Shown here in pieces: positions 1 to 5,772 of a stretch of DNA of 64,000 bases. The stretch covers positions 5,296,006 through 5,360,005 of the forward strand of contig OZ244937.1 in NCBI GenBank assembly GCA_965222075.1, written 5' to 3'. The position numbers and the translations under genes were made by a program. The notes under the pieces are model-generated. The model ran no database searches. It was not told where the DNA came from and was given only the letters and a program-made list of their open reading frames with translations. The stretch comes from Candidatus Latescibacterota bacterium. GTDB lineage: Bacteria; Latescibacterota; UBA2968; GCA-2709665. Numbering within the stretch: the stretch's first letter is position 1; each line of letters begins with the position of its first letter.

Positions 1-123
1 GTGCGAACCTGCCGAGCGGGCGCGGCGGTTGCAACAGGGGTTTCGATTAGCAAGCGCCGTGACCGCGAAGGAAGGTTGGGCGATGGGGCGAATGCCCCAA
101 AGCCGCAGCCGGTCGTATTAGCC
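1..123 (-). repeat. attC-like site (partial, cut by window edge)
   Basis: Same architecture as the other sites: AACCT...AGGTT hairpin, GGGCGAT linker, GGGGC-GAAT-GCCCC hairpin, CGCAGCCGG-TCGT-ATTAGCC end. Confidence 0.7.
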
Positions 124-181
124 GTCCGAGCAGCCCACAGACTGCCCTTGCCAGGGTCGGCAAGGCCATCGTCTTTGACCT

Positions 182-739
182 TCACGCTCTTCGAGTCTGT
201 TTCATATCATGAGCGAATGGGTATAGTTCCCCGAAGTCCGCAGATTCTGGGCCAAATAGCTCTGCCGCTTGTCTGAAATGGACGGCCCGAACTTCCACAA
301 TCCTGCTATTCGGATCCGGATCAGCTCTGTCCTCGGTTTTTCGAACCACATCAGCCCACGATACGACTCGCACATGCTCTGGGTGCGGGAAGTGGGGCAA
401 CCTGGGGCGGTCGTTTCGAGAGACGCAGTAGTACATCCCTATCGGATGAAGTTCCCCCAGATTGCTTCTCGTTTCCTCCAATAGCTCGCGACGACCAGCC
501 TCCTCCCAATTCTCGTTGGGTTCGAGGGTGCCTCCCGGCAAGACCCATTTCCCGTTGGACCGCTTGGTCACGAGACAATGACTGTCGGAGACGAAAGGAA
601 TGATATAAGAGGAGCCACAAATAGTCGAAGCCAGTTCATTTTCGAATTTGCGGAAGTGGACATTGGGACGTAGTTGCCCATGCTCCTCACTCAGGGTGGG
701 GTATTTCGAGATGAGCTTGTCGAACTGCGTACGGTCCAT
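182..739 (-). CDS. NUDIX hydrolase (cassette gene)
   Basis: Nudix box PGGTLEPNENWEEAGRRELLEET. Confidence 0.88.
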   Translation of the reverse strand: MDRTQFDKLISKYPTLSEEHGQLRPNVHFRKFENELASTICGSSYIIPFVSDSHCLVTKRSNGKWVLPGGTLEPNENWEEAGRRELLEETRSNLGELHPIGMYYCVSRNDRPRLPHFPHPEHVRVVSWADVVRKTEDRADPDPNSRIVEVRAVHFRQAAELFGPESADFGELYPFAHDMKQTRRA

Positions 740-806
740 GTTAAAGGCTACGTGTGGTTTTCTGGCGGCGCGTCCTGCGCCGCCCCTGTCTTGCGGGCTG
801 CTTCGC

Positions 807-887
807 GGCTAACGTATCGCCGTGCCCGAGCCGCGCAGCGGTTGCGCGAAGGGCGTAAGCCCGAAGCCGGGCACGGACGTGTTAGCC
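807..887 (-). repeat. attC-like recombination site
   Basis: + strand: GGCTAAC-GTATCG-CCGTGCCCG-[AGCCGC GCA GCGGTT]-GCGCGAA-[GGGC GTAA GCCC]-GAAGC-CGGGCACGG-ACGT-GTTAGCC. Confidence 0.88.
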
Positions 888-898
888 GAAGTATGAAT

Positions 899-1564
899 TC
901 ACTTGAGGTTGCGTATTGTGCTCGGCAACTCGTCAAGATCGTCAACAACCGCATCCACAATCTCAGGCACCTCCCAGTACTCATCTCGCTTCCAAATCGC
1001 TTTCATCCCGAAGGACTTGGCGCCCCGAACGTCGGCCTCCGGGTTGTCGCCAATCATGATAGCCTGATCTGGTGAGACGCCCAGGTTGTCGGTCGCACGA
1101 CGGAAGATCTCCGCATCCGGTTTTGCGACCCCTTCTGCTTCCGAGATCAACATTGTGTCGAAATAGCGAGAGATTCCCAAACCATCAATCTTCGGCTGCT
1201 GCGAATCAACTCGCCCGTTCGTAACGAGCCCCATCTTTAAACCTTGTTGCCTGAGTATGGTAAGAGTCTGATGTGCCTTAGGAAACGGAACGCATATATG
1301 GGGAAAGTATGTCAGGAAGTCCTCCAGCAACCTCTGCCAAATACCGGGTGAGAGAGCAAAGTCGCGTTCAATGCTCCTAAACAGCCCCTCCTTCTCGGCG
1401 TGGCCATGTGCGTCCAACTCAATGACTCGCTCCATGTATTCGGCAAATGGAAGAGATTGAAGATCATTTGCTAGTCGTTCGACCTGAATATGCAGGTACA
1501 CTCTAAGGCTACTGATCCGATCCAATAGCGTTCCGTCAAGATCGAAGAGCGCTGCTTGAAACAT
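899..1564 (-). CDS. HAD-superfamily hydrolase (cassette gene)
   Basis: Motifs FDLDGTL, LVTNG, KPD and IGDNPEADV. GGAGG RBS upstream. Confidence 0.92.
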   Translation of the reverse strand: MFQAALFDLDGTLLDRISSLRVYLHIQVERLANDLQSLPFAEYMERVIELDAHGHAEKEGLFRSIERDFALSPGIWQRLLEDFLTYFPHICVPFPKAHQTLTILRQQGLKMGLVTNGRVDSQQPKIDGLGISRYFDTMLISEAEGVAKPDAEIFRRATDNLGVSPDQAIMIGDNPEADVRGAKSFGMKAIWKRDEYWEVPEIVDAVVDDLDELPSTIRNLK

Positions 1565-1590
1565 TTGTACCTCCAGTCGGACTCCATTTC

Positions 1591-1660
1591 GGCTAACGGT
1601 CTCGCGGGCTGCGAACCCGCGCAGCGGGTTGGTGCGGAGGCGCAGCCCGACGTGTTAGGT
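1591..1660 (-). repeat. attC-like recombination site
   Basis: GGCTAAC-GGTCTCG-CGGGCTGCG-[AACCCGC GCA GCGGGTT]-...-CGCAGCCCG-ACGT-GTTAGGT. Confidence 0.88.
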
Positions 1661-1686
1661 GCAGTGGCATTCAGATTCGTGTCTGG

Positions 1687-2133
1687 CTATTTCAGGCTCT
1701 TCCGAAAGAAGACCTCACTTGCAGGACCCGTGGGAGTCCCTGTCAGAATACCGCAGTCTTCGAAACCCATATGGCGGTGCCATTTCTGAGGGTCCAATTC
1801 ATCCAGCTGAGAGGAACTAAGTAGATATGTGAATCCCTTCTCTCGGAGATAACATTCTAGAAAACCAAGCATAGACCGCCCCACACCCTGTCTTTGATAC
1901 TTCTTCAAGACTATGATCCCGCTGATGTAGGGCGCGCTATAGTGATGGCCCTGCCAGATGAACTGAAATTCCAGGACACCAACCGGCTCTCCATCCAATT
2001 CCGCAACGATAAACTCCTTTAGCCGGATCTTCGTTTCCACTACATCCACGGTTTCTATTGAAAGCGTATGCTTGCACCATTTGGCGTCCTCGTCCTTCGC
2101 AAACCTCACGACCGTGTCACTAGACCTTGTCAT
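1687..2133 (-). CDS. GNAT family N-acetyltransferase (cassette gene)
   Basis: Acetyl-CoA motif YQRQGVGR and C-terminal WHRHMGF. Confidence 0.85.
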   Translation of the reverse strand: MTRSSDTVVRFAKDEDAKWCKHTLSIETVDVVETKIRLKEFIVAELDGEPVGVLEFQFIWQGHHYSAPYISGIIVLKKYQRQGVGRSMLGFLECYLREKGFTYLLSSSQLDELDPQKWHRHMGFEDCGILTGTPTGPASEVFFRKSLK

Positions 2134-2195
2134 GAAAGTACCAGCCTTTGTAAGAGATGGAGGACTTCGCCGAGAGGTCGAGACTGCGCCATTGC

Positions 2196-2293
2196 GCCTA
2201 ACGTTCCCGCCACTTGCGAGCCCCGAGCTTGTCGAGGGGTTGCCGACAGGACAAGGCGCCGTAGGCGACGCAGCGCAAAACGCTGTGTTGGGC
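2196..2293 (-). repeat. attC-like recombination site (more degenerate)
   Basis: GCCTAAC...GTTGGGC with an internal AGCCCC...GGGGTT hairpin in the conserved position. Confidence 0.75.
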
Positions 2294-2321
2294 GAAGGAG
2301 CACGTCTTTTAGGGTATCATC

Positions 2322-2546
2322 CTATGCTTCGAGAAACTCCTCTGTTGTTACCCCAGCTTGCTTCAAGATTGCAGACAAGGTTCCTTCCGGTAAATCCCCA
2401 GGATGGTTGGGGATCGTCGTTCGGCACCGGGTAGCAGGATTCCACCAGATTTCATGGCTCCCTCGTGCATGCCGATCAAACTCAAATCCCAACCGTCTCA
2501 GTTTTCCAGTTATTTGTCGATAGGTGAAACCTGCAAGACGTCCCAT
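2322..2546 (-). CDS. hicA: HicA family type II toxin (mRNA interferase)
   Basis: LRRLGF...RGSHEIW...TTIPNH...GTLSAILKQAG. Coupled to the upstream hicB. Confidence 0.92.
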   Translation of the reverse strand: MGRLAGFTYRQITGKLRRLGFEFDRHARGSHEIWWNPATRCRTTIPNHPGDLPEGTLSAILKQAGVTTEEFLEA

Positions 2547-2791
2547 CAGGCTCCTACCAGTATGTCCAGTTCAACAACCTCAGTATCCAGCGTTTGCAAT
2601 CCTTCTGGGAGAGGATCACCGTGTTCACGGTAGGATTCAATCAGTTTTCGTGCCACATCCTGTGCAATCTCAGTTGTTTCGGCCACTGTTCTGCCTTGAG
2701 CAACTAAACCAGGAAAGCTATCCGAAGTAGCTAAAAATTGGCCGTTTTCAACTTTCTGCACTTGAAGATGCAATCTATATTCTTCTGACAC
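2546..2791 (-). CDS. hicB: HicB family antitoxin (short, no C-terminal DNA-binding domain)
   Basis: FLATSDSFPGLVAQGRTVAET...GDPLP HicB-like motif. Overlaps the hicA start by 1 nt. Confidence 0.88.
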   Translation of the reverse strand: MSEEYRLHLQVQKVENGQFLATSDSFPGLVAQGRTVAETTEIAQDVARKLIESYREHGDPLPEGLQTLDTEVVELDILVGA

Positions 2792-2858
2792 GGCTCATGC
2801 TCCTGTTTGGTGAATAAGGTTAGCTTTTTCGCGTCAACAAACCCTGAGAATATTGACG

Positions 2859-3254
2859 TTAAGTTTTTCTATGCATAACTACCTGTTGAGTAACCCGAAA
2901 TTTGCAACTTTTATAGAGAGAGGTCAATTCGGGGTCACAAAATAAAGAGACGATATCGATATCAGCTAGTTCCTCAAGAAGTCGCCTGAGCACAGCTTTT
3001 GCAATACCTGTACGATGATCGGGGTGTACTGTTACATCTTCTATATAAGCACGGAAATGCCCGTCTAGCACCGCGCGCGCAAATCCGATCAAGTCCTCTT
3101 CCTTCCAAGCACCCACTGCAGGATTACGGTTAAGAACGTCAGTAATATCCTGTAGAGAACGCTCCGGACACCACTCATTGGCAGCATAAAGACGACGTAC
3201 AGCATCTGCCGGTATAGGATGCTCTTGATGAGTGCGAATCACGTAATTTACCAT
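2859..3254 (-). CDS. GNAT family N-acetyltransferase (cassette gene)
   Basis: LIGFARAV.DG..AYIEDVTVHPDHR.GIA. Start moved to ATG 3254 (3281 also possible) because the longer ORF runs into the attC site. Confidence 0.82.
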   Translation of the reverse strand: MVNYVIRTHQEHPIPADAVRRLYAANEWCPERSLQDITDVLNRNPAVGAWKEEDLIGFARAVLDGHFRAYIEDVTVHPDHRTGIAKAVLRRLLEELADIDIVSLFCDPELTSLYKSCKFRVTQQVVMHRKT

Positions 3255-3309
3255 TTCAGCGCAGGTATTAATGGAAACCATGGTTGAACAAATATTGGTT
3301 TGCTCTTTC

Positions 3310-3395
3310 GCCCAACGTTTCCGCGGGCTGCGAACCTGCGAACCAGGTTGGGTCGGAGGTGCGAATGCGCCGCAGTGCAAACTGATGTGTTAGCC
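3310..3395 (-). repeat. attC-like recombination site
   Basis: GCCCAAC-GTTTCCG-CGGGCTGCG-[AACCTG CGAAC CAGGTT]-...-CGCAG...-ATGT-GTTAGCC. Confidence 0.82.
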
Positions 3396-3416
3396 GAAGT
3401 CGATCTATTTCCAAGG

Positions 3417-4154
3417 TTACATTTTTCTGACTATGAAGTATGCACGTCTGCCCAGCTCATAGGGCTCGCAATCCAGTGACGAAAAAGTATCGCACACCTC
3501 GAAACCCACCTCGGAAAAGAGAAATGTCAACTCTCGAAACCCGTAGACCCGCATAGAGCTTATCTTCGTCTCGGAAATTCCGTTCGCAACCAAAGTCCAT
3601 TCAGTATCGATCCGGCTCTCCACGTGTCGGTAGTTCGTGTCCTCCAGGACAACTGTTTCACCTGCTTTGCTCCAACCGCGGAACCGGAGTCTTGGGAGTA
3701 TTGTTTCAGCGACGTTGGGAATATCCAGAGCAAACCTCGAACCAGTCTTGAGCGCTCGATGCACTGCCTCAAGGAATCGCCTATTTCCGTCGTCGTCGAA
3801 GTATCCGAAACTTCCCCAAAAACAGAATGCCGCATCGAATGTCTCAATCCAGGACAGATCCCTCATATCCGTCTCGACAAGCTCAAGATCAAGATTCGCT
3901 TCTTGTGAAGCGGATTGCGCCTCTTGAAGAAGGACTGTCGTGATGTCAACGCCAGTTACTTTATAGCCTCTCTCAGCCAGCGGAATCGCCAATCTACCAT
4001 TGCCACACGGCACATCGAGAACCCGACACCCTGGCTTCAAATTGAGCGCGCGCACGAGAAAGTCTACCTCTTCTGAAGTACGCCCTGCTCGCGAGTTTCT
4101 TTGAACGTCGAGCCAGTTTCCCGCAAAAAAAGTGGTCCACCACTCAGTACTCAC
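3417..4154 (-). CDS. Class I SAM-dependent methyltransferase (cassette gene)
   Basis: VLDVPCGNGR, VTGVD, DMR, FDAA, SFGYF. GTG start after GGAGG. Confidence 0.9.
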   Translation of the reverse strand: MSTEWWTTFFAGNWLDVQRNSRAGRTSEEVDFLVRALNLKPGCRVLDVPCGNGRLAIPLAERGYKVTGVDITTVLLQEAQSASQEANLDLELVETDMRDLSWIETFDAAFCFWGSFGYFDDDGNRRFLEAVHRALKTGSRFALDIPNVAETILPRLRFRGWSKAGETVVLEDTNYRHVESRIDTEWTLVANGISETKISSMRVYGFRELTFLFSEVGFEVCDTFSSLDCEPYELGRRAYFIVRKM

Positions 4155-4194
4155 GTTTAACCTCCAATCTCGGGTCACTCCAACATTCGATTTC

Positions 4195-4278
4195 AGCTAA
4201 CGTTTTCGCCGTGCCCGAACCGCGAAGCGGTTGGGCGAAGGGCCGTATGGCCCGTAGCCGGACACGGACGTGTTAACC
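4195..4278 (-). repeat. attC-like recombination site
   Basis: AGCTAAC-GTTTTCG-CCGTGCCCG-[AACCGC GAA GCGGTT]-GGGCGAA-[GGGCC GTAT GGCCC]-GTAGC-CGGACACGG-ACGT-GTTAACC. Close relative of the 807-887 site. Confidence 0.9.
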
Positions 4279-4365
4279 GCAGTGGGCATGACACCAATGA
4301 AGCTCGCAAATCAAAATGAGTGCCAAACAGAAAACACGCCAAGAAACTACCCTGGAGATATTGCT

Positions 4366-4884
4366 TCACAAGGTAAAGGAAGTATGCTTTCTCCACTTGC
4401 CGTTGCGCTCCATCATAAGCCAAACCTCTTCTGCGCGACTCTTCATCGGCAGGTATGATTCAGCATTCGATTGAAATTTCTCGACGATTGCTTCCAACGC
4501 AACTGCATCATCCGCATGTGCTACGGTAAGGTGAGGGTTGACGGAAGAATAAGCCCCTTTGTAGGGTGGGTGGTCCGGAAATTGATTTACCAGAGCTTGA
4601 GTCATTCTTTTGAACTCATTATCGGGCTCCGGATGCAAATAGAGGACACCTGGAAACCTACGCACCTCGACAAGGAAAAAGTCGAACGGATGGAAACTCT
4701 GAATCACCTCCCGGACTTCAATGACACTGTTTCTGGTGATGGCCTCTCGATCCAGAAACGGATAGAGTAGAGTGATATGGGCAGGGATCCCCGCCTTGGC
4801 TGCGGGATCGTATCTACTTCGATACGCCCCAACCAATTTCTCCGCCTTGGGCACCGGAATTAGGATTGCCGATTCGTCTGGCAT
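4366..4884 (-). CDS. 2'-5' RNA ligase / 2H phosphoesterase family protein (first cassette)
   Basis: Two HxT motifs: AHITLLYPF and PHLTVA. Confidence 0.88.
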   Translation of the reverse strand: MPDESAILIPVPKAEKLVGAYRSRYDPAAKAGIPAHITLLYPFLDREAITRNSVIEVREVIQSFHPFDFFLVEVRRFPGVLYLHPEPDNEFKRMTQALVNQFPDHPPYKGAYSSVNPHLTVAHADDAVALEAIVEKFQSNAESYLPMKSRAEEVWLMMERNGKWRKHTSFTL

Positions 4885-4920
4885 TTTGCGAAATCACTGG
4901 ATGGAAACATCTTACCCATT

Positions 4921-4995
4921 GCGGTTAACTACGGGATTACCGAACAGTTACGGTAATACGCGCCAGATCTGAGGATTTCCGAACGTTCGGGAACA
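4921..4995 (-). other. attI-like primary recombination site
   Basis: GCGGTTAAC (4921-4929) is the exact complement of the first cassette's far end (GTTAACCGC, 4272-4280). It is not followed by an attC stem, but by two related palindromes, TTACCGAACAGTTACGGTAA and TTCCGAACGTTCGGGAA, about 40 bp apart. Confidence 0.6.
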
Positions 4996-4997
4996 TT

Positions 4998-5394
4998 TTG
5001 TTAATATTGGTTTTTGCAAGCCCGGTCAAACGCTTTCTGTACCGACCGCCCGGTCACCCGGTCTGGCGCCCGGGAACAGCCATGTTCGGGGTTGATATTG
5101 GCGCCTGTAGTCTTGAACCGCCTTCTGTGCGACTGTGGAGAGCATCGTGTAACGATCCTTCCGGTGCTTGCCCTGGCGGATATGGAGCAGTTTTCGATCC
5201 CCGTCGATGTCTTCGACCTTCAACCGGACCACTTCACCCAGCCGAAGGCCTCCGGAATAGGTCAACAGCATGATCGCCTGGTGCTTCAGGTTTTCTACTG
5301 CATCCAGTAACCGAAGCACTTCTGCCCGGCTCAACACAGTGGGCAATTTGTGCTCCTTTTTCGGACGGGGCAGGTTTTCAAGAGGATATTCCAT
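4998..5394 (-). pseudogene. Truncated, frameshifted tyrosine recombinase/integrase
   Basis: LPRPKKEHKLPTVLSRAEV...YSGGLRLGEVVRLKVEDID...IRQGKHRKDR...WLFPG. Continues after frameshifts as RSVQKAFDRAC / TNINK. The N-terminal domain and the HxxR/H/Y catalytic end are absent. Confidence 0.88.
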
Positions 5395-5772
5395 TGAGGT
5401 CTTCTCTCGGCATTGCGGCTGAAAAAAGTGGATTGGCTTTGCTTTCAAACAAATCCCGTGCCGTAGAGACCGCTAACGGAGAACAATAAATGAACCTGTT
5501 GTGAAATTAGTGTCAGATGGGAGAATATCCTTTTTTAAACAGACCTTTCAGGTTGCTGATTTGTTTCAAAACAGACCGTTCAACGCATTCAGAAAGTACC
5601 ATATCCGAAGCGCTGAGAACGTGAACCTATTGTATTTTCAGGTCGTCGTATTGCCCCAATAAGGCGCTCACGGGATGGCGGAAGAGGGGCTGTGGGCGCG
5701 TTATCAAGCGCAGACGGTGATACAGGCGGCTCCGGCGGGTGTAGAGGCGTAAGCGCTGACTGAAGTAAAGGG

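Follow-up and report, generated by a model that had tools for sequence, protein, structure and literature searches.

In classical integrons, the strand is marked and a second exchange prevented by the combined action of the extrahelical bases of the attC site and of I2, a part of the additional domain of the integrase IntI (Escudero et al., 2020; PMC7790495). According to the same source, direct proof of the role of I2 is lacking, as its deletion kills IntI1. In the prevailing view of integron biology, it was by its grip on extrahelical bases that the I2 helix allowed a Xer-like enzyme to evolve towards the recombination of folded single-stranded DNA. Recombinases without the IntI-specific region have nevertheless been recorded near attC sites: Cury et al. 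(2016; PMC4889954) counted 50 of them, 21 in genomes without IntI, and four of these recombinases stood between IntI and Xer in their tree, each with fewer than three sites. Similarly, the insertion was described as "not fully conserved" in an integron-like subgroup (Smyshlyaev et al., 2021; PMC8138268). Here, we describe a series of attC-like sites and the remnant of an I2-less tyrosine recombinase in a stretch of 64,000 nucleotides (hereafter the window; contig OZ244937.1 of assembly GCA_965222075.1, positions 5,296,006 to 5,360,005), which is the terminal 64 kb of a single 5.36-Mb contig of a Candidatus Latescibacterota bacterium. Positions 1-5448 of the window are probably the integrase-proximal end of a decayed integron-like platform in this chromosome, and the window looks like a fossil member of a seemingly widespread, undescribed integron variant. 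What is new here is the bulge on the AAC arm of the sites, and their probable I2-less partner; their branched fold is already known. A literature search, with subscription journals and supplements outside its reach, returned no description of large arrays with an I2-less integrase or of this site geometry.

Geometry and conservation of the attC-like sites

On the + strand, the five full sites of the window (at 806, 1590, 2195, 3309, and 4194) share one order: AAC is separated by 6-7 nt from a 9-bp stem, within which stand a hairpin (AACC/AGCC...GGTT) and often another one; after the closing arm of the stem, 4 nt lead to GTT. A covariance model, R1, built with a hand-set structure from 12 sites of the genome (a subset with equal arms), matches all five, with E values from 6.7e-10 to 9.6e-18. 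As had been claimed in a preliminary description of this DNA, the spacers measure 6/4 nt at 806 and 7/4 nt at 1590 and 4194, the stems of these three sites are perfect, perfect, and affected by one mismatch, and those at 2195 and 3309 are degenerate (3-4 mismatches). When folded, the "6-7/4 spacers" resolve into four elements: a G.T pair, 3-4 bulged nt on the AAC arm, a helix of 2 bp that covaries, and one unpaired base on the opposite arm. The succession of bulge, 2-bp helix, 1-nt opposite bulge, and 9-bp stem is found in exactly this form at 806, 1590, and 4194. The 9-bp stem itself is free of bulges, the bulge being located at its base. The earlier statement that the inner stem has no canonical bulge is correct, to which should be added that a base at the foot of this stem is usually left unpaired.

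Folded with DNA parameters, site 806 reaches -35.3 kcal/mol, with a z score of -6.20 on the + strand against 200 shuffles; the corresponding z scores are -3.46 at 1590, -1.81 at 4194, -1.00 at 2195, and -1.71 at 3309. Folding energy taken alone therefore places two of the five window sites (806 and 1590) clearly beyond their shuffles; the other three do not stand out on their own. Likewise, the simple pattern TAAC-N40-70-GTTA occurs in the window 5 times against 5.22 expected, which is not above chance. Because single-site folding energy is decisive for two window sites only, the case for something more than chance rests on the site family.

This family comprises, in the whole genome, 54 related sites by nhmmer and 52 by R1. 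In addition, R1, applied to related genomes as the preliminary description had put forward, has matches in 44 of the 61 Latescibacterota genomes. A strict regular-expression scan of the genome gave 7 candidate hairpins per strand, at the identical 7 places, and 3 of them belong to this family. In an unfitted MAFFT alignment of 12 sites, 9 of the 11 pairs in the helix made up of the L stem and the 2-bp helix show changes in both partners, and 90.7% of the cells are paired, compared with 32-37% when the partners are slid. Over 106 Latescibacterota sites, changes on both sides were found in 8/9 pairs of the L stem, 6/7 of hairpin 1, and 2/2 of the 2-bp helix, with 89.4% of the cells paired vs 32-41% with slid partners, in an alignment that was fitted to the model and so leans towards it. 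Hairpin 1 thus covaries in these model-fitted sites, as had been anticipated for the branch hairpins. The AAC/GTT box pairs are retained in 102-105 of the 106 sites and the outer box positions are paired in approximately half of them, as expected for chimeric boxes in arrays. The arms that covary stand 60-130 nt apart. RNAalifold, run on a plain MAFFT alignment of 23 sites, gave 4 pairs only, the arms being misaligned, and was replaced by the hand-set structure.

The two strands of the sites are not equivalent. The bottom strand is the more stable one in 89 of the 106 sites (mean difference of -2.38 kcal/mol) and in 68 of 100. Within the window sites, GCGCAGC or GCGAAGC loops are present on the + strand at 833, 1619, 1640, and 4222 and are absent from the - strand, in agreement with the earlier assignment of these loops to the bottom strand. 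The same bias extends to the 106 sites, 53 of which contain a total of 73 occurrences of GCGNAGC, all on the bottom strand and none on the top strand. Heptamers of the GCGNAGC type are described as extraordinarily stable DNA mini-hairpins (PMC13037366). The preliminary description had pointed to these loops and had taken the multi-way junction as a mark of the strand; neither is supported as special. In the account of Nivina et al. (2016; PMC5027507), the terminal structures of chromosomal attC sites are often long and able to branch, the attC sites of mobile integrons have purine-rich (GAA) bottom-strand loops, and over 263 attC sites the bottom strand is favoured by a mean of 2.12 kcal/mol. 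A branched tip and purine loops are thus ordinary for chromosomal attC sites, and what is unusual is the geometry of the R-L junction and the recombinase partner.

In the canonical attC site, as presented by Nivina et al. (2016; PMC5027507), the unpaired central spacer consists of five to six bases per arm, and the arm facing AAC carries two or three extrahelical bases, with G16 in the L box and T23/24 beyond a 6-bp stem. We surveyed folds computed with DNA parameters and enforced AAC/GTT pairs, and considered as well folded the sites with at least 12 bp before the tip; this was the case for 62 of 100 distinct Latescibacterota sites, and the other 38 fail to fold over 12 bp. In 59 of the 62 well-folded sites, the R box is followed, as the first loop, by a bulge confined to the AAC arm, of 4 nt in 51 sites and 3 nt in 8. 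Similarly, in other phyla a 3-4 nt bulge on the AAC arm is the first loop in 43 of 55 well-folded sites. The 7/4 asymmetric loop of the preliminary description is therefore both real and conserved. The arm facing AAC has at most one unpaired base, of any identity and 2 bp away from the R-side bulge; such loops number 46 in the 62 Latescibacterota sites and 4 in the 55 sites from elsewhere. The canonical extrahelical pair (G16, T23/24) was absent from this arm in the folded sites surveyed, the R-L junction being non-canonical; canonical sites used as a control, from the genome G063 discussed below, do show two bulges. In place of five to six central-spacer bases on each arm, the window sites have 6-7 vs 4 nt. 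They share with attC sites the complementary RYYYAAC/GTTRRRY boxes, the covarying imperfect palindrome, and the more stable bottom strand with its purine loops.

The position of the crossover can be read from cassettes that occur more than once. In the array at 3.45 Mb of this genome, two cassettes are duplicated (1614 nt with 99.6% identity, and 888 nt with 99.9%); the duplicated units are delimited by AAC boxes and are not arranged alike in the two places (A-B vs B-x-x-A). Another cassette, which encodes a HAD hydrolase, is found with other flanks in an 866-nt contig of sequencing run X2, which has ~98% identity to window 870-1598 and whose ends do not fit the window (in every sequencing run used, the data are assembled contigs). 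Cassettes thus behave as units bounded at the crossover box. In addition, the two ends of the first window cassette (4272-4291 and 4910-4929) are 85% complementary over 20 nt (inverted repeat I1), as is expected when the boxes of one cassette pair with each other. Taken together, the ends of the duplicated units, the complementary cassette ends, and the recurring HAD cassette identify the crossover box as the one that reads AAC on the + strand, which makes the + strand the bottom strand of integron nomenclature.

Recombinases without I2 and their cassette arrays

The recombinase remnant of the window corresponds to approximately residues 73-203 of 284 and to positions 2-100 of 172 of PF00589, and it matches the integron-integrase model TIGR02249 at positions 87-176 only (69.5 bits). 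It is frameshifted and then ends before the catalytic HxxR, H, and Y, and ~70 N-terminal residues are also gone. We considered, and rejected, the possibility that it is a classical intI pseudogene: its identity is 38.5% over 135 residues to the I2-less class vs 35.2% over 91 residues to IntI, and it is close to the genes of the genomes G002 and G018. No match above the TIGR02249 cut-off was found in its own genome. Two further recombinase fragments are present there, one of which, at 416 kb, points to two sites located 5 kb downstream on the opposite strand. Because all three recombinase copies are fragmentary and 38 of 100 Latescibacterota sites misfold, the platform is to be viewed as a fossil in this genome.

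True IntI was found in 6 of the 61 Latescibacterota genomes searched. Many genomes of this phylum contain a second class of recombinase, which matches TIGR02249 at positions 1-178 and 235-315 only. Its intact members have kept R, K, HxxR, H, and Y, and show gaps of 31 and 10 columns where IntI is filled (alignment A8). The best relative of this class in the PDB is VchIntIA (2a3v, 149 bits, in two pieces), with 27 residues in place of the 69 of VchIntIA, and the next solved relative is XerA (123 bits). The proteins closest to the remnant (those of G002, G018, G044, and G003) score 196-241 bits with TIGR02249, below its cut-off of 265 bits, and reach no NCBIfam cut-off; an array-linked protein of G060 (locus L049) passes XerA_Arch, with 234.9 bits vs a cut-off of 220. 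We infer that the partner enzyme is a close relative of IntI that has the catalytic residues and is devoid of ~41 residues of the IntI additional domain, including I2.

The I2-less genes and the sites are arranged in a constant manner. At 11 of 14 recombinase loci in Latescibacterota, the 3' end of the gene faces the array, and the bottom strands of the sites are on the opposite strand. Over all phyla, we scanned loci from the best 80 of 579 protein relatives, with one genome per species, on both flanks and both strands, using R1 and then a second site model, R2, built from 44 cross-phylum matches (16 loci). With E values up to 0.01, R2 gave 127 matches at these 80 loci. Downstream of the gene, 112 matches are on the opposite strand and 7 on the same strand, 6 of the latter in a single Dehalococcoidia contig; upstream, there are 7 same-strand matches, which all come from the G057 locus, and 1 match on the opposite strand. 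This imbalance was obtained with a longer searched length upstream (550 kb) than downstream (329 kb). An array is present in 27 of the 35 loci that have no IS91 transposase and at least 1.5 kb of downstream sequence, compared with an upstream match in 2 of the 66 loci with at least 1.5 kb upstream. The first site is usually located ~350-1100 nt past the stop codon of the recombinase. Twelve loci outside the R2 training also have arrays (L067, L072, L074, L078, L079, L081, L088, L094, L102, L105, L107, and L109).

Scans of five whole genomes (G061-G065) with R2, which test the association more cleanly, gave a similar picture. In Desulfitobacterium (G061), 26 of 32 matches form a single run of 38 kb, beginning ~0.9 kb past the gene, in which 12 cassettes hold one ORF each on the recombinase strand. 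In Paenibacillus (G062), 33 of 34 matches are in a 61-kb run beside the gene, and in a member of Spirochaetia (G063), 32 of 32 are in a 31-kb run beside the I2-less gene. In a member of Gemmatimonadales (G064), 4 of 5 matches are beside the gene, and in Halanaerobacter (G065), 5 of 40, the other 35 being on small contigs. No IntI above the cut-off was found in four of these five genomes. The geometry and the I2-less gene thus occur together in Latescibacterota, Bacillota, Spirochaetia, Gemmatimonadota, and Dehalococcoidia, with arrays of up to 33 sites, and this synteny strongly supports the earlier suggestion that the sites fit a recombinase without I2.

The genome G063 is of particular value, since it also contains a true IntI (374.7 bits), on a contig separate from that of the I2-less gene. 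This IntI adjoins an array of ~145-nt repeats, whose bottom strands have a 2/3 central loop and, opposite AAC, a pair of 1-nt bulges separated by 5 bp, as in canonical sites, and none of these sites is matched by R2. The site beside the I2-less gene has 4 bulged nt on the AAC arm, with no counterpart on the other. One cell thus possesses two enzymes and two site shapes, of opposite asymmetry. A generic scan for AAC...GTT hairpins around the true intI loci of relatives gave mostly noise and one clear canonical site (L060:9744-9835), and was not relied on.

A block of sequence is conserved after the stop codon of the recombinase in the window, G002, G018, and G044, and weakly in G038; the similarity ends at the GTTA where the first cassette begins. 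The copy in the window (4926-5003) is the sole full copy in the genome. On the basis of sequence comparison, this block behaves as an attI with differing first cassettes should, and it can be considered a putative attI. Elsewhere in the genome, 20 nt at C1:3535554-3535573 are identical to part of the palindrome in this block; they lie ~570 nt past the site 3534895-3534985 and may be the trace of a second platform.

The layout of the window is summarized in Table 1. Every sizeable ORF in 182-4884 is on the minus strand, with functions typical of cassettes. The cassettes are promoterless and co-oriented with the recombinase remnant, and an attC-like site lies between most of them. The TTG start listed for the GNAT ORF at 2859-3380 overlaps site D, and the real start is probably further in.

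Table 1. Features at the start of the window, in window coordinates.
Feature	Position	Strand	Evidence and remarks
attC-like site, 3' part, cut by the window edge	1..124	+	R1 26.3 bits; repeat families D1 and D3; entire site at genome 5295987-5296129
Cassette ORF, NUDIX hydrolase	182..739	-	PF00293, E 2.8e-14
attC-like site A (bottom strand)	806..888	+	R1 57.0 bits; perfect 9-bp L stem, three-way tip, GCGCAGC loop; spacers 6/4
Cassette ORF, HAD hydrolase	899..1564	-	PF00702, E 1.2e-27
attC-like site B	1590..1661	+	R1 67.7 bits; perfect 9-bp L stem; GCGCAGC motif twice; spacers 7/4
Cassette ORF, GNAT acetyltransferase	1687..2133	-	PF00583, E 1e-12
attC-like site C, decayed	2195..2294	+	R1 53.0 bits; L arms of two types; best 9-mer pairing with 3 mismatches
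hicA toxin ORF	2322..2546	-	PF07927, E 3.6e-18
ORF adjoining hicA upstream, presumed antitoxin	2546..2791	-	no Pfam match
ORF, GNAT acetyltransferase	2859..3380	-	PF00583, E 1.2e-9
attC-like site D, decayed	3309..3396	+	R1 45.8 bits; 4 mismatches
Cassette ORF, SAM methyltransferase	3417..4178	-	PF13649, E 1.9e-19
attC-like site E	4194..4279	+	R1 72.7 bits; 9-bp L stem with 1 mismatch; GCGAAGC loop; spacers 7/4
First cassette ORF, 2'-5' RNA ligase superfamily	4366..4884	-	PF13563, E 9.9e-25
attI-like site (candidate)	4926..5003	-	block shared with intact-gene loci of G002, G018, G044, weakly G038
IntI-like tyrosine recombinase remnant, I2-less class	5026..5448	-	PF00589, TIGR02249, tblastn and translation, alignment A8

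Several other features of the window and its relatives were observed. Between 2195 and 3396, the hicA pair (2322-2791) and the GNAT ORF (2859-3380) have no intervening site, giving three ORFs in one "cassette"; either a site has been lost or two cassettes have fused. Just upstream of the recombinase remnant, two 19-nt direct repeats stand 32 nt apart (5532-5582), together with the inverted repeats 5374-5391/5523-5540 and 5440-5455/5558-5573; these repeats could be operator-like, or could be leftovers of the lost N-terminal region. In sites C1:975887, 3446734, 3448365, 4158595, and 4174795 of the genome, the 5' and 3' L arms are of different stem types and unable to fold, and mixed L-arm types also occur in the window sites 2195 and 3309; these chimeras suggest homologous exchange within the conserved middle of the sites, and not recombination at the boxes.

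In the sequencing runs, summed contig depth over window 600-5500 peaks at the sites (runs X12, X14, X1, and X2), reaching 1094 at 4208-4371 in run X12 vs 44-62 in the cassette bodies; those samples contain many look-alike sites. Sponge- and marine-metagenome runs contain single cassettes at 93-98% identity. Contig "joints" at 881-889/4189-4201 were examined as possible excision products and rejected, as they link the look-alike sites A and E and may derive from other arrays or organisms.

Among the cross-phylum loci (L061-L140), the contig ends less than 700 nt past the recombinase gene in 31 of 80, which fits assembly breaks in the repeated sites of arrays. At L063, on a Dehalococcoidia contig, one downstream site on the expected strand is followed by six on the other strand, and part of this array appears to be inverted. 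Relatives of the I2-less recombinase are also present at L106 and L122, on putatively archaeal contigs (binned as archaeon/Undinarchaeales), with one model match 349 nt after the gene at L106. In two genomes, the recombinase belongs to repeated units together with a transposase of the IS91 type (Y2): G007 has six copies of a 2.5-kb unit (recombinase and Y2 transposase, PF04986 and PF14319), of which five lie near arrays, and G004 has two such units. One of the G004 units follows a true intI within 400 bp on the same strand (L052; G004:C1:2493564-2496900), and the second sits behind an internally deleted intI (L053).

Alternative explanations and a possible mechanism

We consider it likely that the I2-less enzyme is the cognate recombinase of these sites. 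Several observations weigh against this reading. Three of the 14 Latescibacterota loci deviate from the common arrangement (the gene of G057 is divergent, G003 has sites on both sides, and one of the G007 copies lacks sites within the stretch searched), and 8 of the 35 suitable loci from the cross-phylum scan have no array. R2 was trained beside these recombinases, which inflates its sensitivity there, although not the upstream/downstream or whole-genome contrast. An attI-like site and a recombinase remnant are both missing from the other large arrays of this genome. As for the sites, the 1-nt bulge opposite AAC, frequent in Latescibacterota (the 46 loops in 62 sites mentioned above), could serve as an ordinary extrahelical base. 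With regard to the enzyme, deletion of the additional domain kills IntI1 (Messier and Roy, 2001, via Escudero et al., 2020; PMC7790495), and recombinases of this kind were judged "not IntI" in the survey of Cury et al. (2016; PMC4889954). Finally, recombinases of the same family ride IS91-type elements at 13 of the 80 loci, with six copies in G007 and two in G004; the family thus has a mobility of its own, and its presence at arrays could be that of a lodger.

One alternative is that the arrays are ordinary CALINs (clusters of attC sites lacking an integron-integrase), built by a classical IntI that was lost or acts in trans, with a geometry that is a flavour of the lineage and an irrelevant I2-less neighbour. 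The occurrence of true IntI in a minority of Latescibacterota genomes (6/61), the lack of an adjoining recombinase at most arrays of this genome, and the canonical boxes, branched tips, and strand bias all agree with such an origin, and the IntegronFinder papers report CALINs to be common, a few of them in Firmicutes (PMC4889954, PMC9024848). However, no R1 site was found in the searched flanks of the true intI of G004, G054, and G060, the genomes with the biggest arrays (G000, G003, G007, G057, and G058, with 43-52 sites) have no IntI above the cut-off, the same is true of four of the five array genomes of other phyla, and the true IntI of G063 has an array of its own, with the opposite asymmetry. 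For these reasons, we regard a classical IntI as an unlikely builder of these arrays. An I2-less recombinase that comes from an IS91-type or derived mobile element and inserts at the ends of arrays, its position reflecting a choice of target, is in our opinion quite improbable. The repeated recombinase-Y2 units of G007 and G004, most of those in G007 lying near arrays, and the transposase directly behind the gene at 13 of the 80 loci are what such a lodger would leave; nonetheless, gene and array are not separated by a transposase in the window, G002, G018, G038, G044, G058, or G060, and a tblastn search for a Y2/IS91 transposase gave no match in the window or in its whole genome. Moreover, a single clade unites 11 of the 14 IS91-linked copies and excludes most of the array-linked ones, an R2 match of any kind is found at only 2 of the 13 IS91-linked loci, and the attI-like block is conserved between the stop codon and the first site.

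The notion that the palindromes are recombined as duplexes in the manner of Xer sites, or are not recombined at all and represent terminators or REP-like elements, draws on the fact that I2-less enzymes normally act on duplex DNA (Escudero et al., 2020; PMC7790495) and on the folding energies, by which only two of the five window sites clearly beat their shuffles. Such an explanation seems very improbable to us in view of the covariation between arms 60-130 nt apart, the confinement of the stable purine loops to one strand, the complementarity of cassette ends, which extends past the box, and the duplicated units that end at the AAC box.

If the I2-less enzyme is indeed the cognate recombinase, a mechanism may be proposed by analogy with integrons. 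The bottom strand would fold, as in integrons, and a monomer bound to the R box would cleave at AAC. The cleaved arm would keep 6 nt before the L stem (C, G, and the four-base bulge), which is the usual length of the central region, and the other arm would have 2 nt. The helix would kink at the bulge, and the position of a would-be second-strand cut would be devoid of a normal central region. In this way, the bulge would mark the strand and disable second-strand exchange through the shape of the DNA, a role played in integrons by I2 and the extrahelical bases. This strand-marking role of the bulge is put forward tentatively. Also speculative is the idea that I2-less recombinases and sites with an AAC-arm bulge constitute a second, widespread integron lineage, possibly an older one, in which hairpin cassettes are captured without I2, and that IntI arose by gaining the additional domain while the asymmetry shifted to the opposite arm. 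A quick tree, with two Xer proteins as its root, has the three IntI that it includes nested within the I2-less group, with weak support and biased sampling; it hints at such an order of events without establishing it.

Should the association between enzyme and sites prove correct, natural I2-less relatives of IntI at the head of cassette arrays would provide the missing comparison for the role of I2 in single-strand recombination. In addition, part of the sites filed as CALIN would have an integrase of their own, and cassette platforms would exist in Bacillota, a group in which integrons are reported to be nearly absent (PMC9024848). Some of the hosts, such as Paenibacillus and Desulfitobacterium, are cultivable. 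The element of the window is itself a fossil, and its value lies in the family to which it points.

Comparison with known systems

The closest described system is the classical integron (class 1 or VchIntIA-VCR). The two have in common a recombinase whose closest relative is VchIntIA, RYYYAAC/GTTRRRY boxes, covarying arms, variable branched tips, a more stable and purine-rich bottom strand, arrays of single promoterless ORFs, and a crossover at AAC; the conserved block by the gene would be the counterpart of attI. They differ in that the recombinase lacks ~41 residues, the sites have a 3-4 nt bulge on the AAC arm and no G16/T23-24 pair, and the gene and its cassettes are mostly co-oriented. 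The arrangement described here lacks an IntI with the additional domain beside the array, by which a complete integron is defined. Its distribution is also different, as it is found in Bacillota: according to IntegronFinder 2.0 (PMC9024848), complete integrons are nearly absent from this group, with one complete integron and a few CALINs in Firmicutes.

Treponema offers an example of an integron whose integrase is co-oriented with its cassettes. The systems described here resemble these "inverted" integrons (Cury et al., 2016; PMC4889954) in orientation; however, the integrases of the latter match the IntI-specific region by virtue of the detection method (PMC4889954), and those described here do not. 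By the definition of IntegronFinder, the array would be classified as a CALIN, since it has no protein that matches the IntI-specific profile, but unlike a CALIN it is associated with a specific class of recombinase and with a conserved attI-like site at its start.

Two other types of mobile element share part of these features. IS91-family elements with a tyrosine recombinase belong to the same wider clade, with 42-55% identity to the array-linked recombinases and 38.5% to the remnant of the window; unlike them, the window, its genome, and the stand-alone loci have no transposase. With the elements that exploit Xer/dif recombination (IMEX), such as CTX-phi, in which a folded single strand mimics the duplex dif site (Escudero et al., 2020; PMC7790495), the resemblance would lie in the action of an I2-less recombinase on a folded single strand. 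In contrast to Xer/dif systems, no 28-bp dif-like core is apparent here; the sites are hairpins of 70-190 nt with boxes at their outer ends, they are arrayed between cassettes, and they have a dedicated recombinase gene of their own.

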